Shown here: positions 4,820-33,800 of the stretch, in pieces
Layout: the number at the start of each line of letters is the position of its first letter
How positions within the stretch are numbered: the first letter of the stretch is position 1
Virus record (IMG/VR): IMGVR_UViG_3300035670_000186
Span: 1,829-65,828 of that record
Strand: one strand, 5' to 3'
Length of the DNA stretch: 64,000 bases
Origin: a virus
Lineage: Duplodnaviria; Caudoviricetes
Made by a program: the position numbers and the translations under genes
Notes under the pieces: generated by a model
Database searches by the model: none
Seen by the model: only the letters and a program-made list of their open reading frames with translations
What the model was told of the DNA's origin: nothing

Positions 4820-4934
4820 CGGTGTTTTCTCTCTCCTAGTGGGAGTTTGCTAGCCGGGATTGGGGAACCATGGAGGGAAAACGGGGCGCTTGGTCGCCCG
4901 TGTCTTCGACTCCCCCCGAATTGTACGTCCGAAT

Positions 4935-5126: not shown

Positions 5127-5141
5127 CTTTCGTTCAATCCT

Positions 5142-6359
5142 TTACTTGAGTTTCGGTGCCTTGACGTTCTTTGCGTCGTATTCGATGCCCCTGAAGCGAG
5201 TCCAGCCGTCGTAAATGGCCGCAACTTCGTAGGTGAACAAGTTCTTCCCGGTGTCCTCGTAGGTCACCATTCCGATCCCCTGTTGCCAATCCTCCACCAC
5301 GGTCTTGGGTCGTCCCCAAGCGTCCACCCCGCCTTTGGTGGAAGGTACGGCGCCGTCTATGCGCGCCAGCGTCCCCGGGCTGGCGGCCATGATGGTTCTC
5401 GCTCCGTCCCAGTCTTGACGGGTACGGTAGGCGAGCTCTATCCTATGGATGTGTCCATAGATGACGGAAAGTTTTTGCTCGTTGAGGTAAATGTGGGCGG
5501 TGGATCCGCGAGACCTGACTCGGTTCCCGTGGATGCACGCCAGCTGATTGTTGATGAGATAGTAGCCGGCCGGGTATCCGCTCTCGAAATGGATGCCATA
5601 TTCCTCCATCCTGCACAACGAAGGAACGGACATGTCCGGCCAGGCCTTCGGGGTGTTCCCCTTGGTGATGCCGAACGCCGCTTTCGCATTGTCAAGGATG
5701 TAGTTGGTTAGTCGCTCTTCGTGGTTGCCGGCCAACCATACGATCTTTGCTTTGGGCGCCGCTTGCCTGAGTTCGGCGCATAGCGTCGTCGCCCTGTCTA
5801 TCGAGGCCTGAGTCGTCAGTGCGAATGCCGGACTGAGCCTGTACTTGCCGAACTCGGGAAGATCCAGGTTGTCGCCCAGCAGAACTATCTGGTTCGGCTG
5901 CATGTCCCTGATGATCGAGATAGCTATCGCGATAGCACGCTCGTCGTGAGTCGGCACGAGCTCGCCGTCGGCGTCCCTGAAGTAACCGATTTGTATATCA
6001 GGTACTATCACGGCCGTCTTGGCGGTTGATTTCAGTAACTGCTTGACGTTGGACTTTTGTATTTGCACGGACGGTCCCGGCTTGGGTAGTTCCCATTCCG
6101 GACCCGTCTCCCACGACGGCGAGAACTGAATTGCTTGAAGGTCGTGAACCTGGAACTCGCCTTCGGCGTCTTTGGTCACCTGTTGGTAGATCGAAACCTT
6201 TTTTACCGATCCGATCTCGGCTAGGTCTATGCCCTTCGAGCGAATCATCTCCTCGATGGCGTTGAGCACCTTCTTGGATTTGGCTTCGTTCTCGGATTTT
6301 TGCTTCAATCTCTTGACGCCGGCGGTGACTCGTGGATTGACTTTTTTGTCGGTTTTCAT
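5142..6359 (-). CDS. Calcineurin-like metallophosphoesterase
   Basis: PDIQ, LLGD.LD, AGNHE, IHG and GHIH motifs; GGAGG RBS. Confidence 0.88.
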   Translation of the reverse strand: MKTDKKVNPRVTAGVKRLKQKSENEAKSKKVLNAIEEMIRSKGIDLAEIGSVKKVSIYQQVTKDAEGEFQVHDLQAIQFSPSWETGPEWELPKPGPSVQIQKSNVKQLLKSTAKTAVIVPDIQIGYFRDADGELVPTHDERAIAIAISIIRDMQPNQIVLLGDNLDLPEFGKYRLSPAFALTTQASIDRATTLCAELRQAAPKAKIVWLAGNHEERLTNYILDNAKAAFGITKGNTPKAWPDMSVPSLCRMEEYGIHFESGYPAGYYLINNQLACIHGNRVRSRGSTAHIYLNEQKLSVIYGHIHRIELAYRTRQDWDGARTIMAASPGTLARIDGAVPSTKGGVDAWGRPKTVVEDWQQGIGMVTYEDTGKNLFTYEVAAIYDGWTRFRGIEYDAKNVKAPKLK

Positions 6360-8722: not shown

Positions 8723-8796
8723 GTCCTCGTAGCTCAGTCGGATAGAGCGACGGTTTCCTAAACCGCAGGTCGCAGGTTCGATTCCTGCCGAGGACG
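8723..8796 (+). tRNA. tRNA-Arg, anticodon CCT
   Basis: GTCCTCG/CGAGGAC acceptor stem, GCTC/GAGC D arm, TT-CCT-AA loop, GCAGG-TTCGATT-CCTGC T arm; CCA not encoded. Confidence 0.95.
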
Positions 8797-8883
8797 CATA
8801 TAGCGGATCGTTTATATCGCTACTTTCGTAGTCGTATGACTACTTTTGTACTCGTGGGTGATATCATCGTCGCCGTAATTCCA

Positions 8884-9252
8884 GGGGCTGCAAGGTTTCG
8901 ACGACCAGGCAACCGACGGAGACGCGACACGGGCCGTTCGAACCCGCAAAACTCGGGCAAAAATACGACTGCCAACACGCAGTTCGCTCTCGCGGCCTAG
9001 ACCGTGAGAGACATCGTGGGTAGCGATACCGCACGGGGCCGATCCACCGCAGCCCGGCAACAGAAGCGGAGGATGACGGCGGGAAAGCACGCTGGCATCG
9101 GGGAAGACCGATGACGTTTCGGAAAGACGAGGCGACGCTCTTTCAAGGGCAACCGACCGATCGGTGGCGACGGCGTTAGCGCCAGTATCGGGATTGTCGT
9201 ATCGGCTTTGCGGGTGATTGTTCGGACGGGGGTTCGATTCCCCCCAGCTCCA
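8884..9252 (+). ncRNA. ssrA: tmRNA; tag reading frame ANTQFALAA at 8971-9000
   Basis: 5' GGGGCTG..GGTTTCGAC and 3' GGGGGTTCGATTCCCCC-CAGCTCC-A with G3.U pair; internal frame ends in ALAA-stop. Confidence 0.95.
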
Positions 9253-9253
9253 C

Positions 9254-9487
9254 TTAGTCCTTGTTCAAGTGGGACAAGATGAATTTGACGTGGGCGTTTC
9301 CGTCCTCGTCCACGGCGGTTATCTCGGCTTTCGTGAGGTCTAGGATACCCCTGGCCAAGTCCCCCAGCCTTAGAAACAGTTCTTTATTGTCGTCGTCCTT
9401 GCCCTCGGGGTCAAACGACATCTCGAAGAGTGCGTCCTGAATTTGCTCGATTACGTAGATTCTTGCTTGATCGTTCGTGATGGCCAT
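9254..9487 (-). CDS. Hypothetical protein
   Basis: 77-aa ORF; extended -10 TGtTAGCAT six nt before ATG (leaderless). Confidence 0.7.
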   Translation of the reverse strand: MAITNDQARIYVIEQIQDALFEMSFDPEGKDDDNKELFLRLGDLARGILDLTKAEITAVDEDGNAHVKFILSHLNKD

Positions 9488-14932: not shown

Positions 14933-15312
14933 GTTTTGTCTCCTGCGCCGTAGTACTCCCTAGCGTAGCCCGACTGAACTATGTCCGTATTGAGGCATGC
15001 CGTTGTGGGGTCGTCTATCTTGTCCGAAGAGTAAATTCTTGCCAAAACCCTGCCGTATTTGTCGTTTTTGTCGGGAATGGTATTGATGAATATCCATTTA
15101 TGATTGGTTACCCAATCCTGCGTAAACGCCTTTGCTTTTAGCCCCATGGCTTTTTCGGCGGCGTCTTTCGTTCTGGATTCGGGGGTGTTTACTCCGTAAA
15201 GTCTCACTCTAATTTTGTGGTGAATGTTGAACCCGAGATCTATCATCAAGTCCAGAGTGTCTCCATCGATCACCTTCAAGACTTGCGCTCCGTACCAAAA
15301 GCGTTGCATCAT
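14908..15312 (-). CDS. Thermonuclease (SNase-like)
   Basis: VIDGDT, VRLYGVNTPE and DKYGRVLA motifs. Confidence 0.92.
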   Translation of the reverse strand: MMQRFWYGAQVLKVIDGDTLDLMIDLGFNIHHKIRVRLYGVNTPESRTKDAAEKAMGLKAKAFTQDWVTNHKWIFINTIPDKNDKYGRVLARIYSSDKIDDPTTACLNTDIVQSGYAREYYGAGDKTWEEFKTK

Positions 15313-17042
15313 CTACCTTCAAAACCGTCTGTTCGAGGAATGGCTCTTCCCGGCCTTCTAGGTTTGTTCGGGTCCCTAGGGTAACGACCAATTTCAATTG
15401 AATTTCCCGGTTGGCCAGAGCGATTTGGATCTCTTGGATACCGACCGATTTGAATTGTCCCCGGGTCGCGCCGGTCGGCGGGATCGGGTTTATCTTTTCC
15501 TGGTCTGTTCGGCTCGATGGGGGTCGGGGCAGTTCGTGGTCGTGCGACACTCCTTCCGCGGCCGTCCTCTCCTACGATCAAATTTCCACCTCCGGGACCT
15601 CGTGGGTTGACTGGGGTGGGCCTATTTCTGTCGACGCCCGTAACCCTTCCGCTCGAGTCTCTGTTGAGTCGGCCTTCCCTGTCGGATTCACCGCCGGATC
15701 TTGCTCGGCTTATGGGGGATGCCGCGGTTTGATTTCTCATGTTGCCGTCGCGCCCGCCTCCACGCGCGTAGAAATCCCTAGTTCTTGCGTCCAGATCTCG
15801 CCTATCGGCATTGTTGGCGGCTCTCTGGTCGTCCCTGCGGCGTGCATTTTCGTTTCTGCCTTCGACGGCGGCCCTGCTTTCTCTTTGTCGCTGCAGTTGT
15901 TCCGCGATCCATTTCGGATCCCTCGCCGCATCGCTGTTTGCTCCACCTGGTCTGTTCGGATAACGAGATGCAACGTACTGCATTCCTCGTCCCCTGACTA
16001 TGCCATCCCACTCCTCTTGCGGTTCTTGCCTTGTCGGAGGTTGCGTATATCCCTGCGGTCGGAGTCTTTCAAAACGACTATTTTCGTTGTCCTGAAAGCT
16101 TGTGTCCGGTCTTAGTCTTTCCATTCTTCTCTGTTCGTTGTCTTCCCAGCTTGTATCGGGCTTATTTTCGGCGGGAGGAGTGGTTGTCGTTTCTTCCGTG
16201 GTTTCTCTGACCGGTTCGCCGGCCCTCATGCGTCTGTCGTATTCCGCGCGGGCCTCTCTTCTGGCTTGACGCTCGTCGTCGCTTCTGTCGGCCATGGCGG
16301 CCGTCGGAGTCATTCCTCGCTTGCGCAGTTGATTTCTGACGAATCGTTTTCTATCTTCTTCAACGGTGAAAGCCGATCGCGCATCTTCTCGCGCCACTAT
16401 TTCCTCGTCGGTTCTGTTTCCTTGACCACCCGGAGTGACTCCTTGACGGTTGAGCTCGGAGCTGACGAACTTTCTGCGTCTTTTCTCAAGGAAAGAATTG
16501 TCCATTCTTTCGTAATCTTTTTTGGGTTTTCTTTTTACGGGTTGTTCGTCCGGCGTTCCGTCGAAAATCATGCCGTCGCCGTCCCTGTCGATCATGTCGT
16601 CGGCCGATGCTCCCCCGCCGCCGATTGACGCCCCCAAAGCTTTGTACTTAACCGCTTTCTTCTTTCGGGGTCCGGGTTTTTCGTTGTTCGGCGAATATAC
16701 GCCCTTTACTACTCCGTCCGGTATTACGGCGAACCTGCATTTTCCGCCGTCCTCGACTTGCTGGGCGATGATCTTGCAGACTCCGTTGCCCTCGTACAGT
16801 GCGCAATTGGAGCACTTGACTCCGATATGTGCGACCACGTTGTCCTTGGCCTTCTCGTAGCCGGCCCATATTCCGGTTTCGTCCTCGTTGAATTTTCCGT
16901 ATTTTGAGGCTATGGACACCAATGAATCCGCCAAAGCTTGCTCGTCTGGGGAAAGCTTTGGTTTCGGTGGTTCGGGATTTTTGGCGACAACGACGATTAA
17001 TTCGCCGGACATCAGCTTCTCCGCCATTTCCATTGGATTCAT
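15309..17042 (-). CDS. Putative head-associated protein: HiPIP-like Cys4 motif, DRDGDG leader, Arg-rich disordered tail
   Basis: CSNC...C...C; KALG...DMIDRDGDGMIFDGTP shared with 56340..58100. Confidence 0.7.
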   Translation of the reverse strand: MNPMEMAEKLMSGELIVVVAKNPEPPKPKLSPDEQALADSLVSIASKYGKFNEDETGIWAGYEKAKDNVVAHIGVKCSNCALYEGNGVCKIIAQQVEDGGKCRFAVIPDGVVKGVYSPNNEKPGPRKKKAVKYKALGASIGGGGASADDMIDRDGDGMIFDGTPDEQPVKRKPKKDYERMDNSFLEKRRRKFVSSELNRQGVTPGGQGNRTDEEIVAREDARSAFTVEEDRKRFVRNQLRKRGMTPTAAMADRSDDERQARREARAEYDRRMRAGEPVRETTEETTTTPPAENKPDTSWEDNEQRRMERLRPDTSFQDNENSRFERLRPQGYTQPPTRQEPQEEWDGIVRGRGMQYVASRYPNRPGGANSDAARDPKWIAEQLQRQRESRAAVEGRNENARRRDDQRAANNADRRDLDARTRDFYARGGGRDGNMRNQTAASPISRARSGGESDREGRLNRDSSGRVTGVDRNRPTPVNPRGPGGGNLIVGEDGRGRSVARPRTAPTPIEPNRPGKDKPDPADRRDPGTIQIGRYPRDPNRSGQPGNSIEIGRYPRDPNKPRRPGRAIPRTDGFEGR

Positions 17043-17214: not shown

Positions 17215-18552
17215 CTATTGGGCCAGGGTCGGAGCTTCGTCGAAGTCGACGAGCACGAACGCCTCGGGGCGCTTCACCGCCAGCGCAAGGCGCTGTTCGG
17301 CGAGAACCACGATTGCGTTGCGGACGAAGAAGTCCGAGTGCTGCTCGCTGACTCTGATGCTGGCCTGCTCGCGGTCGTAGAGCTGTGCGCCCGTACCGAA
17401 AGCACCGACCAGTGCCTTGCCTTCCTGCATCGCTGGGGTCTCCACGACCGGGATCCTCCAGATGCGCGGTTCGCCACCGAGTGCCACGGACACGGCGACC
17501 AGGTACTGGCCGTTGTTGTCCTTGGTCAGCTCGATCTTCTCCCAATCGCTCGGGTGAAGGATGACGCCCGTCGGCTCGTAGTAAGCGAGGAACGACAGGG
17601 TCGCGGCGCGACGGATGGCATCGGCCATCGAGTCTGCCACCGGGACGTCGGTCGGGCCGTCGCTCCAGGCGTAGTTCTGGATGCCTGAGGTCTCCATGAT
17701 GCCTTCGAGGTTCTCGCCGGTGCCATCGCCGCGGAGGATTTGGAAGTCCTCCTGGAGACGGAGACCGTACATGAGCTCGTTGTCGATGATCGAGCGGAGC
17801 TGTGGCTCATCGGCGAGGACGTTGCGGTGCGCCGCTTCCCAGTGGGCGAGCGTACGAACCGGTGCCTGCTGACCGACGAACTGGAAGCTCGACTGAGGCT
17901 TGGCGCCGAATGTGCCGCCAGAGCGCTCAGCGACCATCGCTGCGTTGTTCGAGGCCGTGGTGCCCGGCGTGGTGAAGCCGAGGTGACGGAAGTACTCGAT
18001 CACGGCCGCCGTGGTCGAACGCGACGGGAAGAGGTCCCTCACGCGCTTCGTCCTGGTCGGCTGGGTGACCATCGGGTCGCGCTGGATCGTGCCGAACGAG
18101 CCGGGCGTACCAGTCGGCAGAGCCGAGTACACGTCCTTCACGCCGTAGCCGCCAGTGAGCGAGCCGTTGTACTGGAACGGTGAGGGCATGTTGGCGCCGT
18201 TGCGACCACCGTTGAGGGCCTTGAACTCTGCCGACTCAACGAAGGCCTGACCGACGGTCATCGCCCTTGGTGCCGACGAGACCGACGATGCCGCGACTTC
18301 GGCAGCGACCGAGGTGTCGGATGCGACCGAACCCCAATCCTGAACCTTCTTCAGCGACTCGAGGCCCTCGATCAGACCCTTGATCTCGCGGATGTCGGCC
18401 ATGTTCTTGTCGAACGCCGACTTCTGCTCGGTCGTAACGACGACCGTTCCGTTGTCCACGCGGAAAGAATCCGCAATTTCCTTGTTGTGTTGCATCTTCT
18501 CGCGGAGTGCGCCTTGCAATTCGCGGAGTCTGCCTTCGTCGATTGACGACAT
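17215..18552 (-). CDS. HK97-fold major capsid protein
   Basis: Coiled-coil delta domain, RVRDLF, E.QIL.GDG.G.NL.GI, KD.NGQY and F.RN...LAE.R....V.RP.AF; GGGAGG RBS before ATG 18552. Confidence 0.95.
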   Translation of the reverse strand: MSSIDEGRLRELQGALREKMQHNKEIADSFRVDNGTVVVTTEQKSAFDKNMADIREIKGLIEGLESLKKVQDWGSVASDTSVAAEVAASSVSSAPRAMTVGQAFVESAEFKALNGGRNGANMPSPFQYNGSLTGGYGVKDVYSALPTGTPGSFGTIQRDPMVTQPTRTKRVRDLFPSRSTTAAVIEYFRHLGFTTPGTTASNNAAMVAERSGGTFGAKPQSSFQFVGQQAPVRTLAHWEAAHRNVLADEPQLRSIIDNELMYGLRLQEDFQILRGDGTGENLEGIMETSGIQNYAWSDGPTDVPVADSMADAIRRAATLSFLAYYEPTGVILHPSDWEKIELTKDNNGQYLVAVSVALGGEPRIWRIPVVETPAMQEGKALVGAFGTGAQLYDREQASIRVSEQHSDFFVRNAIVVLAEQRLALAVKRPEAFVLVDFDEAPTLAQ

Positions 18553-18672
18553 GTTTGCCTCCCTGGGCATAGTTGTTGCTGTTGTTTTAGACAGCGCCAG
18601 GTAAGCACCCGCTGCTTGCGTCTTGTTTAATAATTTACTACGGAAATTAAGTTCGTAGTGTAAGTAGCGTAG

Positions 18673-18882
18673 CTATGCGACAATGTCAATGATTGCCCCG
18701 ATTTTGTCGGCGGCGTCGAATTCTTCCTTGAGATCGGTGAGTTTTTTCCTGTTGTCGGGAGTGTCCTTCAATCCGAAAGTCGACAAGGGGAGGTCAAGTG
18801 CGGCGGATAGCTGAATCGCTTCCCAGGGGTTCAAGCCTTTTCCTGCTTTCGTGCGATCGAGAATGTCGTTTTCCTGTTTCAT
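18673..18882 (-). CDS. Small protein coupled to the 5254-aa ORF
   Basis: ATGA overlap at 18879-18882. Confidence 0.7.
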   Translation of the reverse strand: MKQENDILDRTKAGKGLNPWEAIQLSAALDLPLSTFGLKDTPDNRKKLTDLKEEFDAADKIGAIIDIVA

Positions 18883-21800
18883 TGAGGCTTTCTTCCTATC
18901 GGAATGGTTTTTGTCCTTCGTATATCTATCGGTTTATCGTCCGGTCCGACCCTATCCGTGAAAATGTATCTAAACAAACGAGGGTCCATTATGGCCAGCT
19001 CAAGTCCGCTGGCGCCCTGCTGCAACCTGCCGACCATGACCGGCTTCATGGGGTCTCTTTCGCTGTCGTAAATGTACAGCTCGTCGAAGTACCCACCGCT
19101 CATGAGGTCCGGCAAGATCTGGCTGAGGTTGTTTTGGATCGTTCTGACTATGGTCGGAGCCACGTAGCGACCCGTCCTATTGAATCGTTCTTCGTTTCTC
19201 TTCGCTAGAACCTCGTTCGGAGCGAAGAAATAATGGCCGATTACCTTGTAACCCCTGCCTCTCCAGTCGGTGATGTCTTGGTATCCGTCGTTGAATTGTC
19301 CGCTCGTGTCGTATACGAGGTCTACTCCGTTCTCCGTTGCCATGCGGGCGACAGCGGCGGCAACCGCTCTGGACTCCTGATGGGTAAAGGAAGCCGCATC
19401 TCGCAACCTTTCGGCGAACCAAATACGAGATTCCGGCATAACGATTTTTGCGTCGTCCGGATCGGCGACCATGGCCGTATCGTAATTCGGTATTCCGTTG
19501 AGTCCGTTGTTTCGCGCCGAGCTCTTGCCGGTTGCCGTTGCTCCGCCCAAAATGTAAACGGTCGGTTGTGATTCCGGCTGACCTTTAGAACCTTCGACCG
19601 CTTTTTGCATGCTTCTTTCGACATAAGGCCTCCACAGGTTCTCCACCCTGTCGCGATCGGTCCATTCCCCGAAAAGTTCACCGGACTTGTTCCAGCCCAC
19701 GCCGTAGTGCCTGTCCGTCGGAGCACCGCTGCTCAACTGCGAAGCGGTCATCGTGCTTTGAACGTCCATTAGATCCAGGGATCTGGCTAGCGAATCGTCT
19801 ACGGGGTTTTGATTATTTCCCATTGATGCGGTCGGATCGGAACCGCCGAAGGTCCACTTGCTTCTTGCGGTCCTCGTCCCCCACGGCATCATGGGATGCG
19901 GCATGTCGGTGCTAGAAAGGAACGTTTTTTTCCCGGCCGCCTGGCGAATGGTGTTTATGCGAGCTATTAGGTCTTGGTTTCTCACTCGCGCAGCCCTTGC
20001 GAGCATGGACAAACGGGAGGCTATCGATAACCTTATTTCACCCATAGGATCGCTGTTCGGATCTACTTGCATCATCGCCACGGCGCGACGCAGCCACTCC
20101 GCATGACCGAAAGCAAGTTCGTGTTTGCCGGCGGCTATATCGGAGAGCGGAATCCAATTGGCCGCTCGCGCATCAGATGCGGCGTTGAGATTGGTGTTCC
20201 ACGGAACTACGAACATTCCTCCTCCGACTCTTACTCCGTTGACGAAACGCGGATCCCAGTCCGGAGCCTCTATGGCCCCCATGTATTCGACTTGAAGAGC
20301 GGAATCAAGATCAACGCCCACTTCTTCCATGGTTTCCCGGGTGGCGGTAGTCATCAGTTCTTCGTTGCCGTCCCTAAGTCCGCCGACTAGGGCCATTGCA
20401 TCCGTGTACGGCCCGCTTTTGCGGGATATCATCGCAACTTGAGCGGTGCTGATGTCGCCGTCCATCATTCTTAGTATCACGGAATCCGCGCCTTCGATGA
20501 ATTGATCGTCTTTTCGGTAACTCCAGTCGTTGGTGCTCCAAGATACGTCTTCGTCCGTTCCCGTTCCGAGATTTTTTGAAATATTGAAAGGAGATCTCAG
20601 CGAGCTGAAATCCGCTGCTTTCTCCAACTCCTGACGCGATGCTTTCGGATCTCCGTAGATGCTGGAGTAGTAGTCTTTTTGGCTCAACTTGGGAGAGCGA
20701 GCGTACAGGTCCCTTATCGGCTCCATCATGGATTCGAATCCGTTGCCCATTGACGCGGTCGGTTCGCTTTCCTCGAGTGTCGTTACGTGTTCGTCGTTCC
20801 CGAAATACAGCCGCATGTCGTTGAGGATATTCTCCATTCTGCGACGTTCTCTCGGGTCTACCACCAAGGCATCAGCCCTTCGTACTGCATTGTTTATTGC
20901 TCCAACCAAATCGAACGGCTCTTGGCCCAGCTCTCCGTAAATCAAAACGGAGTTCGTCGGTCTTACGGCGGTCCACGACAACGGGGATTCTCCGCCTCTC
21001 CAGTCGTACTGAGAAATGGTCTTTCGGTCCACCGAGTCGGCGTAAATGTTCATCAATCTTGATACTTCGTCGACCAACTCTCCGTCCGTAGCGTAGGCCG
21101 TTCTGACGGATTCACTCCTGTCGGAGTTGAACCAGGCTTTTTGCGCTATGGCGTTTATTCTGGCTCTTTCGGCCTGCTTGTCGATCGCGTTCATTCGCGA
21201 CCTACCGGACGACATGGAAGCCGTTGGACCCATGTCCCCGGTAACTCTCGCAGAACCAACGGCGCTCATGATCTGGAAAGGTGAGATGCCGGCTTGAGAA
21301 AGCAGGTCACCTACACCGTCGTCGTCGCCATCATGAAGGTTGGGGTCGACTATGGCGACTATTAGGTCGCCCATATCCACGAACTCCATGCCCCTACGCG
21401 AGGCCGCCAAGATGGCGTTTCTCATCGCCTTGGATGCGGCTTTGCTGAAACCGGTAACTTTCTCGGATTCTTTTCCATCCGACGCGTTCAGTGCCGTCAT
21501 CATGGCGTTTTGTAGGGATTCGATCGGTATGTCCAGTTTTCGTAGAGCCTGATTCACGGCTCCAGTTCTGTTTCCGGAAGCTATCCGCCAAGCGCCCAAC
21601 AACAAGTGAGAGGAGTTGAGTTGCTTGTTTCTTCCCTCTTTCGCCTCGTCGTAGCCGTTCACGACAGCCGAAACGGCATCGTTCGTAAAACGACTCATTG
21701 CCATTCTGGTCAGAGAGGACATCGATGCGACCGGTCCGTCCGGCCCGTCGTTGGATGAGGTTAGTTCTCCGTTCCCGGTCGTATCCAGCCATTGTTCGAA

Positions 21801-24800
21801 CGTCGGTAGCATTTTGAGTCTTTGCTGATCGCTCAACAACTGATCCTTGATTGGATCCAAAACCTCTCGTTTGTATCTCCCCAATAGTTGGCGCCTTCTC
21901 TTCGTTCGCTCGGTTGCGGCTACGAACGGAGAAACCTCGGCGATAGCTTCGCCGATGGTCTTAATCGATCCGAACATGCCCGAGTTGATGTATCCGGCGA
22001 ATTCGTCCTGCATCTCGTTTCGTTGTTGTTCCAAGAGTCTTTGATAGGCGTCGTAGAACTCTTGAGTTTTCATTACCTGCTCTAGCTCTAGGTCCTCCCC
22101 TAATTGACGGTTGAGAATGGATTCCATCATGGAGCCGAACTCTTCCGGTCCCATTCCCTCCATGGCGCCTTCGGCAACGGCGACGTCGCCGAATATTGCT
22201 CCCGCTATCGCCGACATGATCGATTGACGTAGTTTCATGCTCGTCATTTCGTTTATTTGCCCGGCATCCTCGAGCTCTTTTAGTAGTCCGCCGAGGGCCA
22301 TCGCTTCGGCTAGGGTTTTGTCGGCCGAGGCGTTCGGACCGTTGACTATCGTGTCCAAAACTCTCATAAAGGAAGAAATTTTTCTGTAGCCGACCGACTG
22401 ATTGCTTCTATATTGGGACAAAATTGCAGAAGCAAGTTGCCCCACTGCGTCGGTTACGCCGATTTTTCTGTCAATGTTCGTCATGGCGACCGCAACCTGC
22501 GGCCTACTTAGCGCCGCTTCTCCGATAACCGTGAAAGGAAGGCCTTCTATCGTCAGAGCCAGCTCTTGAATTGCTTCTTCGAAAGATTTTCCGACGACCG
22601 GATATACGTCGTTCGGATCGTTTACGTTCAGGTACGGGAATATGTTCTTCAATTGATTCAAAACTTCGGGCACCGTTACGGTTCCTTGGGGTATTCCGTT
22701 TACCACTAGACCGAGCCACTCGTCCCACTTCTGAACGTCCGGCGTAGGCCACGAGAGGTCCTTTATGTTTTCTCTTACTTTGTCCAGTATTTGCGTGGGG
22801 GTTATTTCGTCGTCGCCTTCGAATTCTATTTCTGAAAGATCCGACACGTATTGGGCGAACTCTTCCGGCGACATGTTCAGTATTGTTTCGTCGGACAGTT
22901 GTCCGTAGGCTCCGGTCGTCTCCCACCAGTAGCGCCCCGGAGTTTCCGATACGACCTCGTTTATCTTTTCGATCATGTCGTTTTCGTCGTCGGTCAGTTC
23001 GGAAACTTCCGGAATTTGGCCAACGAATTTACCCAAGGAGTCGTTCCATCCCGGCTTGTACGGTCGTTCCGAGCCAGGCCCTGCGTAAACGATGTTCGGG
23101 CCGTACATGGACCAGAAACCGAAAGAGTCGACTCGCGGTCTGGCGTAGGTCAACCAACCCAAGTTGTTGTCTTGGCCCGTGTAAAACGGCGAAGAATATT
23201 CTTCCAATGCCGTTGCTTGAACGGCGCGGCGGTAGAGCGCCGTGGCCAACATGTCAGACATTATTTTCGCCGAAACCATCGCCGAAACGCCGAGCCGTAC
23301 GGACTTGTTGAATTGATTCATGCCGTCCGCTGCGCTCCCGAAATCCTCCATGGGGAGAGCCGAATTAACGAAGTCGTCGGGATTGAGAATTATTTCCTTC
23401 AGTCCTTTGAATATGCTGTCAAAGGCAAAAGCAAAAACTTGATCGTCCATTTCTCTGACGGGAAGCGGATATCGCTCGCCCGGCATCCTGCGAGAACCGG
23501 GTTCGTCGGGAAGATTTAACGGCGCAGATTGCATCACGTTGGTGGGCATCATTTCGCCGAAAGTGTCTATTATCGGCGACATCATGGTGTACATGCCGTA
23601 GGCCCAATTTGCGAGAATCAGTTGGCGAGGCGTTAGTTCGTCGAGTATCTGACGCGCGGAAACGTCGCCTTGCATCGCCCCCGAAAGCAACAACTGCGAG
23701 AACATGGCCTCCCCGGGCATGATGTCAGACAGTTCCGATATGTTGGGAGCTACCGGAAATCCCGTAACCGTAAACTCTATGTCCTGAGACGGGCTTCCGA
23801 TCACCGTGCTTGAACCGGATCCGTACGTAGCCCTGAGTTGGTTGCGTTCGTCCACTGCCGCCATGATCGGTATGAGTCTTGCCAGCACTTTTTCGTCGCC
23901 TTGTTCGAAAAGTGGAGGCGCCGTAGCCAAGTTTGGATTCCGCATCACCTGACGCAATTGCCACAGCTTGAGCCTCAGGTCGTCGTCCATGTCTCTCGGC
24001 AACTCCGGTTCGTCCAAAAATCCGGCTTGAATCATGTCCGCCGTGCTGACCCCCTCTCTCGCGGCGTCGGCGATAGCGAGACCGTCCTCGGGATTTCTGA
24101 AATATCTGTCGTTCGCTCCGAGTAGCATCATCCTGAGCGTCGGCAAAACTCCCCTGAATACTCCGGTCGAATTGAATTCTTTCTTTACGCTGCTCGGCAA
24201 CGCAGTGAGCATGAACAAAGGACTAGCGGGGTTTTCCGATCTCGTGGCTATTTCAAATATCTTGAAATCTTTGCCCGTTAGCGATAGGCGTTCTTCGTCG
24301 GAGGGATCTCCGGCAATCACTATTTCTTTCGGTTCGTATCCGTCTGTTCCGATGTCCCCGAATATCATTCCGATCAGGCGCTCCGCATCGGTCACGTCCC
24401 TGCGAGAGAAATAACCACCCTCGAGTATCAGTGAAGTCCAATCGGACACCGCATCCCTCCACATCGCCATCTTTTTGGCGTTTTTCGGCCCGCCACTAAC
24501 GCTCAACGAAGACTCTTCGTTCGTTCCATCGAATGGATTGCCAACGTATGCGGGGGGATCAATATCGGGCGGAACCGGCGATCCATCCGGCATTTGCGGA
24601 GGATTCGATTTTTCCAACCAGTTTTCCGAAGGTCCGTCCTGCATTCTTGACTCGTCTTTGATTCTCTTGTTCGCCATGGATGCGGTCGGCTCGTCGGAAT
24701 AAGCGTTTTGTACGTATTCGTCGGCTCCAGAAAGAATGGATTCCAGGCTCTGTGAACCGATGCCGTATTTGCGCATCATCGCTCGCTTGGACATGCCGGA

Positions 24801-27800
24801 TTGATAGTCGTTGATTATCGAGTCGGAGTTCTGGGAAATCCACTGAGGCGAACCGACGGCATCCGGAACGACTCCGGCTTTTCGTAGTTCGTGCAATGAA
24901 TTTCTGACGGTATTGGAGTTGATTCCCGTTGCACTGACTATTTGCGGTTCGCCATATCCGGATTGCGCCAATAGGGCCACCGCTTCCTTACGGCTGCGCG
25001 GAGAATTGTTCGACACGTAGTTCGCGGCCGTCTCTTGGTCTATGAAATCCTCTCCAATCGCGTCGTAGAACCTATTGACCGTGCCGTCGTTCAGCAACTG
25101 ATTGACCTGACGCGCAACGAAATATCCGTCATCGCCGAGCGATTCGGCGACCGATTGTTCGTCCATTCCCTCGGACAGCATGCGAACTGCCTCCCCCGAT
25201 CTGTCCCACGTGCTGGCGAGCCAGTAAAAATGCCCCGCATCGATATTCGTCGGAATTGATTCATCTGGCCAAATTTGTTCGGCGGTCTTTCCGAAGGCCT
25301 CTGCCACTCTTCTTGATGCGTTTTTGCTCAGTGCTCCGCCGGCGGCGCGAAGATTGCTAACGAGTTCTTGATCCGTGTTCAAGAACCTCGCCAATGCAGA
25401 GTCCGACATTTCGTAAATTGCCGGTACCGCATCGGCCAAATCGGCGAATGCGTACGCTCCGCTCGATGAGACGTCGGAAGGTCGCAATCCGTTGGACGAA
25501 AACAGCGGACTCATGCCGTCGGATCCGACGAGTTCCCTGCCGAACAAACCGGTAGTCAGTCCGCTTCCCGATATGGCTCTCGCCAATGCTGGGTATGGGC
25601 CGTCTAGGGAGCCGAAATCCTCTATTTGTTTTTGCAACTTCGTCAACTCGTTCGCCACGCCCATTTGACCGAGCGAAACTGTGGCCGCCTCCGACATTAA
25701 CCATCTTTGCCTGTCCCTGTAGGTCATGAAATTCCAGTCGGAAGGCAACGAGGAGGAAAGTTTTGCGATGCGCTTCCTTCTGGACCCGGTCGCGTATACG
25801 AGTTTTGCCACGTCGTCCGAAAGACCGAACGCAGTCGCTATGTTCTCCGCCGACATCGGCATTTGTCGATGAAATCCGATTGCTTCGGTTATGGCGGAAT
25901 TCGCTATGGATAGGTTTTCCGCATCGGGGGTGACCAGATCCATGGCTCCGTCCCCGAACTCCGACAAAAATGGGAATCTATTCAAAGTCATTCTTCTTAC
26001 CGACTCGGGTGAATAGGCGTCGGCGATTCGAGATGCGAACGAGTGGGCTGACCTGAGTGCGGTTCTCGCCCTAGTCAGCAATGTCTCCGTTGCTATGGCG
26101 TCCTCTACGTCTTCTTTGCTTACTCCCAAAATCCTGGAAGCCATGTCCGGGGAGGTGAACAGCACGACGTTGCGAACGTTGTTACTGGCCGACCTGAGCA
26201 TCGTCAGGGCGGCTTCGACGTCGGCTTCGCTTGCCAGGTTCGTGTCCATAGCCTGAGTCAGTCCGTCGTTTACCGCGTCGTATGCGATTCTTCTGGTCAA
26301 GGACGGAAGGGAATCAAGCGCAATATCCGAGAATTTGAGGAATCTTCCTCCCAACTTCGTTCTCGCCAGTGCTTCTGATGCCATGTCGGCGGCCGCGACT
26401 ATGCTCGCCGAATCAACCGATTGCTCCAGAGCTCGGGGCGTTGATACGTCCAGGGTCGGAAGGATGTCCTCGTTTGTCTCGTTTCGAAGGACCGACATGG
26501 CTGTTCTCATGTCGGGGACCGAAACGAACTGCTCTATGTTATTTTCACGACGCATTTTGTTGAGAGATAGAGTTTGTTCTGCGAGTCGTTGCTCGACCGA
26601 ACTCAACAGAGTCCTCTTCGGAGCGGGCTGCTCTCTTTCCGATCCGATCATCGGATATCTCATCGAGCCGATTCCCATGCTTGCCGTAATGTCGTCGGAC
26701 TCCAGACCCGTCGGATCGTTGCGCAACATGTTCAATCCGTTAGAAATTCCCCTGATTTGGTTCATGCGATCGTCCATTTCCGACGTCGTCATGTTCACCG
26801 CATTCTTGATTTCTTCAACTCTGTTGCGCACTTCCTCCATTTGCGAGTAGACGACCTGTCTGGCCCTGTTGGACGCTTGCGCCATTCGCGACAAATCCGC
26901 CGTTTGATTCATCGCCGAAAGCATCGCCGGTTGTATCGCCACGTAGGCGGCCCTAATTCCGTCAACGACTTGTTGCGGCGTCATTCGTCCCGCTTTTAGT
27001 TCGGACATCAAGCGCTTTCGTTCGGCATTGAAACCGCTCGACATTACGGCTACGGCCGATGTGAGGGTTTGAATTCTCGCCCTAATTCTGTCTTGGTAGA
27101 AACGACTCAGTTCTTTAGACTGATTCTCGAGTTGCCTGAGTTGTTGGTCCAGGTCGAAAAGTTCTCCGGCTATGCCGTTTCTATTGTTTTTGTTGATATC
27201 GACCAGCATTGCGACGGTTCGCCGTACCGCCGACTCGTTGAATCGCCTAGCCGCCGCGTCGTTTGCGGAGTCAAGATGGCCCTGCAATGCGGAGGAGCTT
27301 ATGTTGTTGTCTCTGGCATGTTTTCTGAGTCCGGCGATTATCGCATCGGGATGGAAATTGTCTCCGTCGGATGTTTTTTCGATATCGGCTATTTCGTACG
27401 GGTCCAAGAAAGGTGCGGTAGTGAGCGAGGTCCACCATCTCTGCCTTGCGACTTGACTTGCCTTAGCGGTGGAAGAGGCTATTTTTTTCTGCTTTGCCCT
27501 TCGTTCATCGCTGACCTGAACTCTGTTCATGACGTCCGAGTTCGGATAGCTATTCAAGGAGGGGAAACCTGGTTGATCGTCGGGATCGGGCGGCAGAGAC
27601 GCGGCCGCCACTCCTAGTTGCCTGTCGGAAACTTCGTAGGGGAACATATCGGAAATTGCCCGAATGACCCTGTCCAAGTTGAGCGAGGACGGATCGCCCA
27701 TGACTTGGTCTATGATTCCGGGGCCGAATTTTCTAGAATTCTTTTCGTAATGCTCTCCGCCCAATATTCGTGAGTATCTATTGGCCTGCTCCAGCCAGTC

Positions 27801-30800
27801 GCCAAAATCGCCGAATCCGTCCTTCACTTGTCGTATCGTTCTGTCTATTTGTTGAACTATTGGGTGCGTACTCGGATCACCTACGAACTGTTCTTCTTCC
27901 GACTCCAAGGCTTGATCGTCGGTCTGTCGAGCGATCTCCTCGTCTCTTGCTTCGGGGTAATAGACGAGCTTGCCATTCGACAACGATTGGAAATCCCCAA
28001 AACGTATGTCCTGCTCTTCAACCGGATCAAAATCCGGATCGTTGTTCGGATTGGACATTCTGTGAAGCGGCGGTATTTTGCCCAACGACATATGTATCGC
28101 GACCAGTTCTTGCATCGTGGAGAGGAACAGCTTGGCCTCGTCGCTTTGGGCTAGTGCGCCAGGATTCGTCGGATCAAAATCGGCCGGAAAGTCGTAGCCG
28201 GCTCTGGCCAAAGAACGTTTTGTTGCGGCGACGATATCGTCGAATGCTTCCGTGGCTTTTGCGTATTGGCCCGACGATCTCAGTCTTGAGGCGACCAAGG
28301 TCGGCATTCTTCCTCTGCGCGCGTTGAACAGAGCGTCTATTACTAGTCTCGCTTTTATCGCCTCTTTGGCATCGGAAGTTATCGGCCATGCCCCGGTTTC
28401 GGTGTAGGAACCGCTTCGTATCCATCCTTCTATTTCGTTTCCAAAAATGGTGCTGGCATCGGTTTCCGACAATGCATCCAATTTGGATTCTTCGTCCGAC
28501 GGTGGAGTCGGCGGAGCGGGAGCCGCCATGGATGCCGTAATGTCTATTCCGAAAGAGCCCCACAAATCACCGTCATCCGGATCGTCCGTTTCGGTTTGGT
28601 CCCCTTGATAGGGCTGAAAATCGTTGAGCGCAGTTTGGGTGCGGGCTTGCCCGGCGACCCTTTCCAGAACACCCATGTCCGGCCCGGATGGCGATTCCGC
28701 AGTTAGATCGGCCAGCGCCCTCGTAGCGGCCCGATACTGATCGGAGGGAAGAATTTCCCTTCCTCCACTGACGAAATAATCGACGATGTCGCCGTAAATA
28801 ACTTTTTCTTCTGGGTTCAACATGAACATATCGGACGACCTGTCCCCAAAAGCCGCGTCCAAAGCCTCCTCTATCATGGAGGCAAGATTCTCCATCGTTT
28901 CCCCGTTTATCTCCGCCTTCGACAAGCGTCTTGCGAGGTTGTCCAGACGAGCGTCCAACTGTGACTGAGCCGAAAACTGTTGCCTCTCTTCGTAGGATCT
29001 TCTGTCCATGCGTTGAATTATCGACGGAACTATGTAGTTTCGACGCAAATTCTCCAGCTGAAAATCCGACAAGGATTCGATTATTCTTTTTGCGGTTTCG
29101 GCGGTCCCGTCGTAGGAGGCGATTAATTCGTTCAACGACAGTACGGTTTTTTCCGTTTCCGTTTCTTCGGAGATCCTGATCGGCTGATAACCCTTTCCGT
29201 CCGAAGGCAATGCGTCTATCGTTTCCCGCATCAATTTTCTTCCGCCGTCGGCTTGTTCCTTTGCCAAAGTAGCCGCTTTGAACTTACGAAGAGCCATGAC
29301 GGCTGCTTCGTCGAGAGATTTCGGCATCATCGACATGATCGAATTACCGGAGGAATCACTACCGAAAGTCCACAACATTCTCATTGTGTCTTCGGTTGTC
29401 GTTTCCGGACTGGCCAGTATTTCTTCCACCAGTTGCGACGCCAGTTCCGAATCACCGTCGATTGCCGCACGGGCCAATCGTTTCAGCGAATCCGAAAAAT
29501 TCTCTTCGGATTCCAGGATGGCCACTCTGTCCGAGAGCGCTTTGCGCTCTTTCGCATCCAGGGCATGAATTTCTGCGTAGCCGAAAAGATTTCGGACTAT
29601 TCCGGCGAAGTTGACTTTCTTGGCCTCCGCCTCGTACGCTGCTTTTCCGGCCTCGCTTTGTATCGACATTCCATCAAGTCGGGATAGTTGGTCGTCCGTA
29701 AGCGCGTCCACGGCGGACGCCAAGGATTCCGGGTCAAGCGGGCTTATCGCATCCACGTAGGAGAGTTGGTCCATGTGTCCAGCCGTCGGAACCCATTCGA
29801 TGTCCGCTGGCCTCGCCGATATGGTTCGCTTGACTCTCTCCAGGCCCGGCGCAAGTTCTTCCGCTAGGGCCTCCCTTGTCGCCTCTGCCGTTTCGGGGGC
29901 CGATAGCAGTTCGAGTAATTGTCGTCTATCGAGCGAAAGGATCTCCATCGCGGCTTTTGCTTTTGAGGCCGCAGAAGGAAACATATCCAAGTCGGATTGG
30001 GTTATGCGAGGCGGCCATCCGTCCGGAAGCATTTCTTGATACGAAGAAAACCCCGCTCCTTCCAGAATCTCGTATTCCGTTGGGTTGGGATCATCGGGCT
30101 TCCAACCATTTTCGTAGGCGATCACTTTGGCGGCGTTGAGTAATTCTCGCTTGAGTTTACGCAAACGCGGGATTATCGGAAGTTCCTCCACCGGAATTCC
30201 CGTTTCGCTCAACGGCGGGGGCGATATGTCGTCGTCAAGGGATGGCGCCGACGCATCGAAGGCGTCGTTTATTCTGTCGACGAGCGATGCGTATATTTGA
30301 TTGATGGTCGAATCCTCCAGCTTGTTAAGCAACGCCTGAAGAGCTTCTGGACTTCTGGCGATTCGGCCAAGACTCAATGGGTCTCGCTCGTATGTTACGC
30401 CCCTAGACAAAACCGAGAGTATCCCGTTCGGCTTCGACAACTCGATCAAAATATTTCTGCGAGCGGAAGCCAACTTCATCAAATCGTCGCGCGCTTCGTC
30501 TATCGACGAAACTCTTCCCAGTTCCAGCAATTCTCTTTGCTTTAAAACTCTTTCTTTGATTTCCGCCAACTGAACGCTCCAGGGCTTTTCTTCCGGACCG
30601 GCCATGGATACGACGGGACCATCCGACAAAGCGGCGACGTACCTGTCCTGAAACTGCGGGAACTTGTCCTCCAGAATGGCTTTGATCGCGTCGTTGGTTA
30701 CGTATTCGCCGTTTAGCACCGAATCGGCTATCTGTTCGTCTCTGCTGCGACCGTCGTTTTTGAGGGAAAAAGAACGGATGTCGGCTATGAAGCCGTCCAA

Positions 30801-33800
30801 ACTTCTGTACTCTTTTGCTATTTTTGCGGCGGCTTTGGCGGAACCACCTTGCTCGACGTCTTCGAACACCGTATCTAGGATCATGCTCATGTCGATTAGG
30901 GCGCTCTCGTTATTGCCCGAGAAAGGAGTATGACTAGATGTCAACCCCTCCGCTCCCATTTTTTCTCCGCCCATGGCCAAGGCCATCGCTCGTTTTTGCA
31001 TGTCGTCCATGAAATAGACTGTTGAAGTCGCGGCGACGAATTTTTCTATAAAAGATTGCTTGCTGTCGGGGTAGGTCGGATCCGCCGAAACCATTCTGTC
31101 CACGATTGCGCCCATGGCGTTTTTCTGTGCTTCGTAAAGACTCGGCTCTACCCACGGCTGAATCGAGAACTCGAATACCGGAGTACCGGTTTCGCGAATT
31201 ATCGTGTCGACGAGGGACTGAATGTCCGCTCGCATCAACATCAATTGTTTGATTCTGTCGAATTTCGTCCCGATTTGGACTCCGACCCTTGTACCGTCTT
31301 GCTGGACGATCGTATTCAGCGGATTTCGTATGTAGCGCTCGAAAGCTTCGTTGAAGGCGTCTCCGGCGGAATTTGCGTTACCTTTTCCGTCGTTGACGGT
31401 CCAAGACTCGGGTCCTTCCAGGAATTGATTAAGTATGGATCCGAGAAAATTGGCGGCCGCTTCTTCCTCGCTGGAGGTGGATCCGTGCATTGTTCCGAGC
31501 TCGTCGTCAAAGAGATTCTCCGACCACGCCGCTAATTCGCCGCCTTTGTACACCGTGATGCCGAAAGAGTTTCGCAATATACGGCGTATTTTGTTTTGGT
31601 TGACGAATTTTGCATTTCCTGCCCCCGCTGGCGAGTATTCCGTCTGTCTCGGGAGCATCAATTGACGAATCAGTTTTTTGTCTAGATTCCCCATTCGCAT
31701 CGCCATCGTCAAAGCGGCCATAACTTTCCTCGTCCAATCACGACGAGGGTCAAAATTGATGGTGTTATTTTTCGCTTGCTTTATCGCCTTGGGGGATTGG
31801 TTCATGGTTCCGTTTATCACTTGGGCGATTTGCGGAGCTATTTTTGCCAAAGAATCGACGTCCAATAGTTCGGCGACCTCCCTCAGGGTTTTGTCGCCGA
31901 TCGGCGCTCCCATTTCTTCTACTTTGTCCCATAGCCCCCTGGACAGTTCGTCAACGTTTTCCCATCTTGCTTTGAATTGTGGCGCTTGACCGCGTTGGGT
32001 TATTCCTGCTGGGATTGTTTTTGAATATGCCGCCTGTGGTCTTCCGGGATTTATGCTTATTGATGCAACCGGGCCATCCTCGGGCACCGAACGCGCCGAG
32101 ATTCTCCTCGCTAATCGTCCCATCGTGCGAGAAGGCGGGGAGCCGACGATTTGGAAAAAACGTTCGTTGCCGTCGTCTATTTCGTCAACCAGCATTTCCA
32201 ATGCGTCCTTGAACATCGCGGACACTTTTTTGCGCTTGTTTTCCGACGGAATGTCCTGCAGTAGATTTTGCATTTCTTCGGCGACTCGTTCAAAGAGCAG
32301 GCCGACGTTCTGCTGGTCCATGTCGAATTGATCGGCTACGGTCATGAACGTGTCGGCTATCCTCATCGCCGGGCCCATCGGATCGTCGGCGACCACTGAC
32401 CTCAAGTCGAGGTCGTCCACGTTTTGGAAAAGTCTGTTTCCGGATGCGACTATCGCCGCCCTCATTCTCCTCATCGGCTCCTCTGCGTCTCCGATGAGTG
32501 GCGTCATGTCTACGCCTTGAACGACCCTCCTCACGTCGTCGGGAACCGGTCTGTTGACGGTCATCGCCCCCGTGGGTTCGTCTATTTCGGGAAAGATGTT
32601 GCGTTTGCGTTCCGTAAAAACTTTGGGCATCGTGTACGCCGGCAAGGAAAAATCCCCCCATTCGTACAATTCGTCCAGCATCGTCAGAACGCCGTCAGCC
32701 TCATAGTCGGATGGTGCTTTGGTCGAAGCCGCCGACAAAACAACGGCTATCGTTTTGAAAAGACCCATTTTGTCGTTTGGATCGAATATCGTCTCCAAAT
32801 TGCTCGGATCAAATCTGTGCAGGTCGAGCTCTCCCCTTTCCCTGTCGATCCACCCGTCTGCGTATTCCCCGATCTTTAGGGAACCAAATTCGACTTTTTC
32901 CTTGAATATGTCAATCAGCTCTGCGGCTTCGTCCAAAAGCTCCGGATACTCGACTTCGACGAAAAGACCCAAATCGGCGATATTCGCGGCCGGTGCTCCG
33001 TATCTCTTTTTGTAAGCGGCGATTCTGTCGCGTATTCTGCTGGCCACGGGAGACCAGTCACCGCTCTTTCTCCTGGATCGCGGATAGTTTCTTCCAAAAC
33101 GAGAAACCTGCGAAGACATGGCGGCCACCGGTTCGGCACCGGAAATTGCGTCGTCAACGGCATCGGCTATGGCCCGTCTTGTCGCCGACCAGGAAGTATC
33201 GTTGTCAATGGCTTGCGCCAAAGACTCGCGGGTTACGGCAAAAAGTTTGTTTCCGGTTTCTGCGAGATCAACGGCTCCGTCGTAAGCCTCCGCAAGAAAT
33301 TCTTTGTTCTTGGATATCAGCGCCGAAACGTTCGCTCGTGTCTCGGCGACGGTGCCTCCGACCAGTTCGTCCACTGCGTCGGAGAGCGCGGGCGTGTCTA
33401 CTCCGTTCATGATCGCACTTAGGTGGTAGTCCTTCATGCGCAACATGTGCGAGGCGGTTTCGAAAGGATCGTTGTCAATGTTGGCGAGCCAAGATCCGTT
33501 GGGTCTCACCGTTTTGCGAGACGCTCGTGCAGCCAGAACCATGGGCCTCGCCTCAACGCCCAAAAAGTTTTCTATCTCTTCGGGCGCCATTTCTAAAATG
33601 GCTTTGGCCAAATTGGGCAATCTACCCTCGGAAACCAGAGAAGCAAGTTCTCGTGCAAAATTTGAATTACCGGAAGCTACGAAACTTCGCAAAAATTCCT
33701 GATTCCTCAAGGATTCGTACAGCATCGTTGCGTTGAGCGCGCCATCCCCGTTGGTTCCGCCGGAGGCGATAAGGGCCGAGGATCTTTTGTCTTTTTGCGT

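Follow-up and report, generated by a model that had tools for sequence, protein, structure and literature searches.

Prohead proteases of the T4 gp21 type cut after glutamate, at a motif of the form small-x-Glu, and HK97 gp4, a small free protein, digests both the delta domain and itself. In T4 (gp21), phiKZ (gp175) and SPN3US (gp245), one protease acts at a short motif in many capsid-internal proteins that carry targeting propeptides, and it also cuts itself; T4-type sites bear the names ARE-12 and E-124, and in SPN3US it is mostly N-terminal propeptides of separate gene products that are concerned (13 of 14 sites) (PMC10052503). Polyvalent proteins form a second group: they are multidomain proteins of very large size whose genes lie among head genes and for which packaging and injection are predicted, and the main text that describes them lists zeta-toxin-like kinases fused to MuF and proposes that domains are released by proteolysis (Iyer et al. 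2017, PMC5512222). Virion-associated Nudix domains fused to MuF, portal and capsid-processing serine peptidase have also been predicted to be packaged and injected (PMC9503650). Here we analyse a window of 64,000 nucleotides (positions 1,829 to 65,828 of IMG/VR virus record IMGVR_UViG_3300035670_000186), whose minus strand holds a series of very large open reading frames (ORFs) that terminates in an HK97-type capsid gene. One of them, the giant ORF (18879–34643, minus strand), runs uninterrupted for 5254 amino acids (aa), carries 11 sites of a Met-ending linker motif and encodes a putative capsid-cargo polyprotein. We propose that this protein is probably cut after the motif Met by an S78 prohead protease and that the pieces are delivered to the host.

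The locus resembles each of the described systems in part. As in polyvalent-type chains, the giant protein combines three or more enzymatic or binding domains, and its gene lies next to the capsid gene. For polyvalent proteins, however, release has been proposed through embedded metallopeptidases and the main text describes no common linker peptide (PMC5512222), whereas here one lineage-specific Met-ending motif stands at every joint and one of the chains, in relatives, begins with an S78 prohead protease; the string 'Clp' does not occur in that main text. Unlike the T4, phiKZ and SPN3US systems, the motif here ends in Met, the candidate protease belongs to the S78 family and the presumed substrates are giant chains that would yield about a dozen modules each. 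The protease family (PF04586) is that of HK97 gp4 (MEROPS S78), and the capsid protein has the HK97 fold with an N-terminal coiled-coil part; in contrast to gp4, the protease of a relative, G001, makes up the opening 180 residues of an approximately 4600-aa chain, and the capsid protein lacks the extended motif. In the literature we found neither a Met-ending linker code nor a Clp N-domain in a phage polyprotein; the supplementary tables of domains in PMC5512222 and PMC9503650 may include relatives.

Four of the motif sites divide the last 950 residues of the giant protein into modules. Met 4308 ends PVASM (residues 4304–4308; 21720–21734, minus strand; base 21734 opens the Pro codon) at the joint before the first of the four end modules, and Met 4477, 4632 and 4941 each end PTASM (residues 4473–4477, 4628–4632 and 4937–4941; 21213–21227, 20748–20762 and 19821–19835, all on the minus strand). 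The pieces that they delimit are 169, 155, 309 and 314 aa long. An earlier note, made from the letters of the window and its ORF translations, had given the same Met positions and lengths, and our translation and motif scan reproduced them. The strict pattern [PI][TV]A[SA]M occurs eight times in the giant ORF, against a mean of 0.039 and a maximum of 1 in 2000 composition-preserving shuffles, and a looser pattern occurs 11 times against a shuffle mean of 0.218. Six-frame translation of the window gave 15 strict matches, all in minus-strand frames within large minus-strand ORFs, and none on the plus strand; the motif is present in five further large minus-strand ORFs, which makes six in the window. 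Its non-fixed positions are also biased: across the window's 19 sites, Asp stands at −6 in 10, Gly, Glu or Asp at −5 in 18, and Ser, Ala or Gly at +1 in 17. The codons vary synonymously from site to site (CCG/CCA, ACC/ACG/ACT, GCA/GCG/GCT/GCC and TCA/TCC/AGC), and this variation, with Ser spelled by both TCN and AGC, argues for selection on the peptide rather than on the DNA.

The joints are kept in relatives. Six related loci (L009–L013 and L028) came from two scans of viral contigs, and five of them hold all four end modules; L012 has the C-terminal end only and was left out of the joint alignment, which comprised 11 rows from ten distinct proteins (P0003 is the L009 ORF) over the last 1120 residues, with 41–78% identity to the window. 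All four joints carry a Met-ending motif in the ten distinct giant homologues. The Met falls in the aligned column in 11 of 11 rows at 4477, 11 of 11 at 4632 and 10 of 11 at 4941 (P0007 has Val); at 4308 it does so in six of 11 rows and is shifted 1–7 residues downstream in the other five. Upstream sites at 1347, 2039, 2656 and 3323 are likewise kept in place. The residues that precede the Met are uniform inside one genome and differ between lineages: P[TVS]ASM in the window and P0004, [TA][ED]AGM (for example, AEAGM) in L009 and L010, xxAGM or SAAM in L011, D[ST]G[AS]M (for example, DSGAM) in L013, P0005 and P0006, PxG[KR]M in P0007 and PSGSM in P0008 and L028. Common to all lineages is a core of [AG]-x-M followed by a small residue. 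In a conservation profile from which the duplicate P0003 had been removed, runs of low conservation rich in insertions and deletions (4299–4305, 4458–4472, 4621–4631 and 4935–4947) coincide with the four joints. In a structural model of the first two modules, the confidence measure pLDDT (predicted local distance difference test) drops below 50 over the seven residues that lead up to Met 4477 and the 17 that lead up to Met 4632, and the linkers are predicted to be disordered. Because relatives keep a Met-ending motif at the joints, within indel-rich, low-pLDDT stretches, the argument for processing made in the earlier note becomes much stronger.

That argument had rested mainly on the claim that no motif falls inside a recognised domain. 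This holds for the extended motif, which is absent within recognised domains and sits in linkers; the Nudix fold does contain bare [AG]-x-M tripeptides (GGM ending at 4810 and AMM ending at 4858), which lack the acidic-Pro context and the small next residue. The claim of one module per segment is also borne out, and the Clp N-domain, the Nudix domain (PF00293 above its cut-off, with a complete box) and the zeta-like kinase (PF06414, with Walker A and the equivalent of zeta D67 both present) are found in the first, third and fourth pieces, as had been said. Whether the fragments fold alone is answered in part: pLDDT is about 80 for piece 1 (modelled together with piece 2) and 88 for piece 4 (in a complex model), but only 62 for piece 2.

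Module 1 (residues 4309–4476; 21216–21719, minus strand) is a Clp N-domain double repeat by fold and by family-level sequence relationship, despite a Pfam score below the cut-off (Clp_N PF02861, 17.8 bits against 20.7, one repeat matched). AlphaFold, run on modules 1 and 2 with a five-sequence alignment, predicted two sets of helices, eight in all, and gave a pLDDT of about 80 over residues 10–160. Foldseek with the module 1 model returned 42 PDB matches at E ≤ 0.001, the top rows being ClpC1 and ClpC N-domains (target-normalised template-modelling (TM) scores of 0.74–0.84, 16–22% identity); the match to 3wdb had E 4e-6, a target-normalised TM score of 0.78 and a root-mean-square deviation (rmsd) of 2.9 over 147 columns. 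A five-sequence phage profile of modules 1 and 2 found 927 proteins at E ≤ 0.001 in a library of 1.84 billion and reached Clp_N proteins down to E 1.6e-25. Among the 150 matches listed, six giants (5244–6391 aa) match both modules and the other 144 have their best stretch within profile positions 2–194; all six non-giant matches tested score above the PF02861 cut-off, some of them only 152–303 aa long. The closest solved chains by sequence are stand-alone ClpC2 (9p2p_A, 8.4e-7; 8ad9_A, 1.1e-6), with ClpC1 N-domains ranking behind.

The earlier description of this piece as a Clp N-domain double repeat that begins much like a natural ClpC N-terminus therefore needs one correction: the fold and profile are ClpC-like, but the ClpC-like start is MAMSRFT and not the motif Met. 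The Clp fold begins about ten residues past that Met, at SRFT (profile position 10, against residues 3–12 of the ClpC chains). The double four-helix repeat without an AAA+ part is shared with ClpC2 (9p2p, 8ad9 and 8b9o) and with plant ClpT1/T2 (4y0c and 4y0b), which are the best PDB sequence matches of module 1 and are also among its fold matches; in contrast to them, module 1 sits in a phage polyprotein and does not keep the pocket Glu. Mycobacterial ClpC2 competes for ligands of the ClpC N-domain, and by analogy module 1 is probably a decoy or competitor for such ligands in the host. In Bacillus subtilis ClpC, the phospho-arginine pockets are formed with E32 and E106, in two TEH motifs (PMC12583610). 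Neither Glu is kept in module 1, where the window has SSH and MGD at the TEH places; the relatives have Ala, Gly or Pro in repeat 1 and Gly in repeat 2, with the exception of TDH in L028. This loss argues for another ligand of module 1.

Module 2 (residues 4478–4631; 20751–21212, minus strand) is helical. Its strongly conserved residues, with WF, GxxGQxPxDLVGAI and LxF...H invariant, indicate that it is under selection, and among the 150 best library matches it is confined to the six giant proteins. It had no match in Pfam, NCBIfam or PHROG and no usable match in the protein Atlas. Fold searches with the model of module 2 alone were insignificant (Foldseek best E 2.2 in PDB and 0.6 in BFVD), and the best VIA-align Z of 6.5 (rmsd 3.4, 82 aligned) is within the range for unrelated helical bundles. 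As there is no significant fold neighbour, we name no fold for this module.

Module 3 (residues 4633–4940; 19824–20747, minus strand) is a Nudix domain with N- and C-terminal extensions. NUDIX (PF00293) scores 31.9 bits against 21.1 over residues 4731–4852 (about 20085–20450), and the Nudix box is complete (G-x5-E-x7-REtxEExGV, GLRDGNEELMTTATRETMEEVGV; consensus GX5EX7REUXEEXGU), with its Glu and Arg invariant in five of five sequences. Profile matches in PDB were 2fml (7e-9) and the NadM-Nudix protein 2qjt (2.7e-6). The NCBIfam model NtrR matched at E 5e-8 with 32.7 bits, far below its equivalog cut-off of 400, and the best NadM-Nudix model, NF003785, reached 23.1 against a cut-off of 418; we regard NtrR and NadM-Nudix as nearest neighbours only. 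A Pro lies 17 residues after the box, in APDWDPR, which aligns with SRPDRDPR of 2fml; the signature of the ADP-ribose pyrophosphatase subgroup is a Pro about 16 residues after the box. The sequence points to a catalytically complete Nudix of the ADP-ribose-binding branch (NrtR/NadM-Nudix-like), which probably hydrolyses ADP-ribose or a related nucleotide derived from nicotinamide adenine dinucleotide (NAD) early in infection. Members of this branch (NrtR/NtrR and NadM-Nudix; 2fml, 2qjt and 2qjo) are the best sequence matches and share PDxDPR after the box, but module 3 has extensions of its own (DDDVxWSTxxW upstream and a long helical tail) and no helix-turn-helix or adenylyltransferase part. 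A search for stand-alone versions, among 3032 candidates of 169–541 aa, gave two proteins at E ≤ 1e-5; one was rejected as a piece of a giant ORF from a 1.3-kb contig. The other, P0154 (390 aa, from a metagenome), has the same Nudix core, the DDDVxWSTxxW lead-in and the LAFGHAEWLRRA / VRNxxxI tail, with a different N-terminal half, so the core of module 3 is a mobile module.

Module 4 (residues 4942–5254; 18882–19820, minus strand) is a zeta-toxin-like P-loop kinase. Zeta_toxin (PF06414) scores 63.9 bits against 22.3 over residues 5021–5194 (about 19059–19580), and a match to 1gvn_B (1.7e-5) aligns GGATATGKS with the Walker A of zeta, GGQPGSGKT, and brings zeta D67 opposite the second Asp of ADPDDAK. 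Walker A and the catalytic Asp are invariant in six of six sequences. Residues E116 and R120 of zeta, on the side of UDP-N-acetylglucosamine, are partly kept, as Asp and Gln, respectively. Directly downstream, a 69-aa ORF (18673–18882, minus strand) overlaps the stop of the giant ORF at ATGA and is kept in five of five relatives examined. It matched no Pfam or NCBIfam family and had no sequence similarity to a known antitoxin family; conservation and complex prediction point to an antitoxin-like inhibitor. Three prediction runs of module 4 with the 69-aa protein scored 0.84, 0.83 and 0.84 (best of three controls, 0.00), with contact agreement of at least 74% and a partner pLDDT of at least 76; 58 of 80 solved complexes reach the mark used for this score, as do 2 of 110 mismatched pairs, a rough guide as custom alignments were used. 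In the predicted interface (P-loop residues 95–96, residue 122 beside the catalytic Asp, 173–178 and 214–232), the 69-aa protein would bind the kinase and cap its active site. We propose, from the model and by analogy with epsilon antitoxin, that it is translationally coupled to the giant ORF and silences the kinase in the producing cell. Epsilon/zeta and PezA/PezT (1gvn) have the kinase fold, the Walker A and the D67-equivalent Asp of module 4, and in epsilon/zeta a small protein from an adjacent gene covers the nucleotide site, as is likewise predicted for the 69-aa protein. Here, in contrast, a 5254-aa protein carries the toxin as its C-terminal module, the order is toxin then inhibitor with an ATGA overlap, and the 69-aa protein belongs to no detectable sequence family. 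If the 69-aa protein does act as predicted, the kinase is active and harmful and has to be kept silent by the phage during assembly, which fits a delivered effector.

The giant protein shares a leader with its sisters. A segment of about 50–60 aa (giant-ORF residues ~101–160; 34164–34343, minus strand; ...NPATAIDADLDRIVLEGIPxINLGRGVPDPTP) recurs in three other window ORFs, with 68–80% identity to the giant ORF in 44537–47215 and 50326–54330 and 47% in 35989–41529 (copies at about 46985–47134, 54118–54288 and 40741–40989, all on the minus strand; range of identity, 41–80%). The four giants that carry it are otherwise unrelated, and it is a candidate capsid-targeting peptide. It is also present in the protease polyprotein of G001, at about residues 495–603. 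In G001, a Peptidase_S78 domain (PF04586, 44.9 bits against 21) occupies residues 24–181 of a 4578-aa ORF, followed by DUF6321, and this polyprotein has ten motif sites. The G001 pattern of the motif has 28 matches in five giant ORFs and none in the other 32 forward ORFs of at least 150 aa. The G001 head cluster runs from a portal fused to a Mu F-like domain (PF04860 and PF04233; L020 13713–15935, equal to G001 39713–41935), directly before the protease ORF, through the 4578-aa S78 ORF, nine ORFs (several of them giant), the 5244-aa homologue of the giant ORF and a small ORF to the capsid gene. In four of five related records, a homologue of the capsid maturation protease of Gordonia phage Gray lies inside open frames of 3750–5469 aa.

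No PF04586 match was found in the 65.8-kb viral record, and the protease and portal of Gray had no tblastn match in the window. At the far end of the window, an ORF that is open at its 5′ end (58159–63999, minus strand; four motif sites) aligns, with 35% identity over 1926 aa, to residues 2674–4558 of the G001 4578-aa ORF, that is, to the C-terminal part of the protease polyprotein; we conclude that the contig ends before the protease part.

In the reading that we favour, every step from packaging and cleavage to delivery is inferred, and so are the protease that acts, the place of the scissile bond and all targets in the host. The giant protein would be made late from the head-gene cluster and loaded into the procapsid by the leader common to the sister giants. 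Cleavage would follow at some 11 linkers that read acidic-[GED]-P-[TV]-A-[SA]-M with a small residue next; it would fall after the Met and most likely be carried out by the phage S78 (HK97-type) prohead serine protease, which in relatives forms the N terminus of a sister polyprotein. The last products would be 4309–4477, 4478–4632, 4633–4941 and 4942–5254, and the pieces would enter the host together with the DNA, where they may serve as effectors on host proteolysis and on nucleotide or ADP-ribose signalling. Because the conserved positions precede the Met and nothing more than a small residue comes after it, a cut after the Met is more likely than one before it, and the products would then probably not begin with Met. 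A motif that is specific upstream and has an invariant end and a small next residue resembles a protease site in which Met occupies P1; this one also lies in disordered joints and changes together at all the sites of a genome. S78 is best placed to read it, as it forms part of the same group of chains with the leader and works within the procapsid. With S78 in four of five related records and the motif in six window ORFs, the set has two features expected of prohead-protease substrates, a phage-encoded protease and a shared site motif. The domain calls are solid and the processing model is well supported by comparison.

Several observations weigh against this reading. The protease gene lies off the window's own contig, and its presence is deduced from synteny. 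In relatives, the capsid protein lacks the extended motif at the expected delta-domain junction. An APRAM sequence in the capsid protein was considered as an extended-motif site and rejected, as it is not kept in relatives. Capsid residues 125–128 are an invariant G-A-N-M at a plausible junction of delta domain and N-arm, with the Met kept even in Gordonia phage Gray (LTM); this GANM could be the capsid's own maturation site, a weak lead, but in the window it is followed by Pro, a poor residue after a serine-protease cut. The missing phospho-arginine Glu means that a simple ClpC-mimic role for module 1 is not assured, and module 2 modelled alone gives a low-confidence helical bundle (pLDDT 62.4). 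Since epsilon/zeta and PezA/PezT complexes had already been solved, the predicted complex of module 4 may owe something to these known structures, and it shows likeness rather than binding. Finally, other peptidases encoded on the contig, HExxH modules of three sister giants or an HslV-like enzyme, could read the motif instead of S78.

This last point leads to an unlikely alternative, in which the linkers are cut as proposed but by an HExxH (zincin-like) module of the sister giants, working either in the capsid or once injected, by the HslV-like N-terminal nucleophile (Ntn) peptidase or by a host protease. One HExxH motif each is found on the minus strand in 44537–47215 (HEFGH), 47219–50080 (HEIAH) and 50326–54330 (HEFFH), and all three are kept in the G001 homologues; autoproteolytic release of domains by embedded metallopeptidases has been proposed for polyvalent proteins (PMC5512222), and the absence of the extended motif from the capsid protein would also suit a protease other than S78. 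The ORFs that bear HExxH, however, matched no peptidase family in Pfam or PHROGs. The HslV/proteasome-beta-like gene (4154–4819, minus strand; phrog_1040, 4.6e-24) starts MTTVIAVQG, with the MTT that favours this alternative, and is 75–76% identical in two of five related records, but it lies outside the head cluster, among DNA-metabolism genes. A host protease would leave unexplained the concerted change of motif flavour at all sites in each phage lineage, and S78 is physically part of the motif-bearing polyprotein set and has its leader.

Improbable, in our view, is that the motif stays uncut and serves as a flexible joint or as a docking peptide for a scaffold, a chaperone or a portal partner, the giant being an intact polyvalent protein like the N4 virion RNA polymerase. 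Some polyvalent proteins are described as transferred full-length (PMC5512222), and the linkers are predicted to be disordered irrespective of cutting. Yet a plain linker needs no invariant Met with four to six residues of lineage-specific context at about ten sites per protein in five to six proteins per genome; specific residues upstream followed by a small residue are the pattern of a protease site, and the predicted inhibitor gene of the kinase suggests a separate toxic unit. That the motif Met are internal translation starts, with the modules also made from nested ORFs, is very improbable: although the Met is the only (nearly) invariant residue, the ClpC-like start had suggested such a reading and the E-A-G codons of one lineage could spell a GAGG-like ribosome-binding site (as read from the peptide motif only), in the window the 15 bases up to and including the ATG vary synonymously (Ser by TCN and AGC) with no Shine–Dalgarno-like run, the upstream residues are selected as amino acids yet would lie outside such products, and the Clp fold starts about ten residues past the Met.

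Beyond cleavage of this one protein by S78, a wider proposal is held tentatively, at slightly less than even confidence: that a clade of tailed phages follows a true polyprotein strategy, in which a head cluster of about 45–60 kb is translated into five or six giant chains, with S78 at the head of one. These would be loaded into the procapsid through the leader and then divided after Met, at more than 25 [AG]-x-M linkers specific to the lineage, to give dozens of injected proteins, including a ClpC-N decoy, an ADP-ribose-type Nudix and a zeta-type kinase with its inhibitor. The linker code would co-evolve with the protease and mark the boundaries of effector domains. If the linkers are cut, this would be polyprotein processing on a scale undescribed for tailed phages: a single gene takes up more than 10% of the genome and the motif-punctuated giants about one third. 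The motif also splits some 5000 mostly unannotatable residues into testable units. The end modules are candidates for early host take-over or counter-defence; an ADP-ribose-type Nudix is relevant here, with NAD- and ADP-ribose-derived signals central in phage defence, and the zeta-type kinase comes with a predicted new, sequence-orphan inhibitor. A Met-specific S78 protease with a recognition site of six to seven residues could, if true, serve as a reagent.

The source appears to be an uncultured tailed phage (Duplodnaviria; Caudoviricetes) with an estimated genome of about 150 kb; the 65.8-kb record, almost all of which the window covers, is judged 44% complete. The seven sequencing runs listed for this stretch all carry a provisional DNA label, none is RNA, and three may be sources of the DNA. 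Homologues of the giant ORF encode 5244–6391 aa. The HK97-type major capsid protein (17215–18570, minus strand; PF05065 1.2e-44, phrog_10) is encoded directly downstream of the giant ORF, and its closest cultured relatives are Gordonia and Brevibacterium phages, at 46–48% identity. Such a capsid fits a ClpC1-bearing actinobacterial host, a putative assignment.

Other features of the window were noted in passing. A 284-aa protein (34728–35582, minus strand) and residues 39–75 of the giant ORF itself each have a weak DUF3721 match (26.6 and 22.1 bits, both below the cut-off of 27); further matches of the 284-aa protein are to DUF5872 and to two PHROGs of unknown function. A pair of paralogues (15309–17042 and 56340–58100, both on the minus strand; 39% identity over 208 aa) brackets the giant-ORF cluster, and the first of them has one motif-like site, PTAAM. 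On the plus strand, a full-length transfer-messenger RNA (tmRNA; 8884–9255; Rfam RF00023, 75.8 bits against 47), which ARAGORN did not call, adjoins a tRNA-Arg(CCT) that ARAGORN did call (8723–8797). This phage-borne tmRNA neighbours the HslV-like peptidase, on the same contig as the Clp N-domain module.

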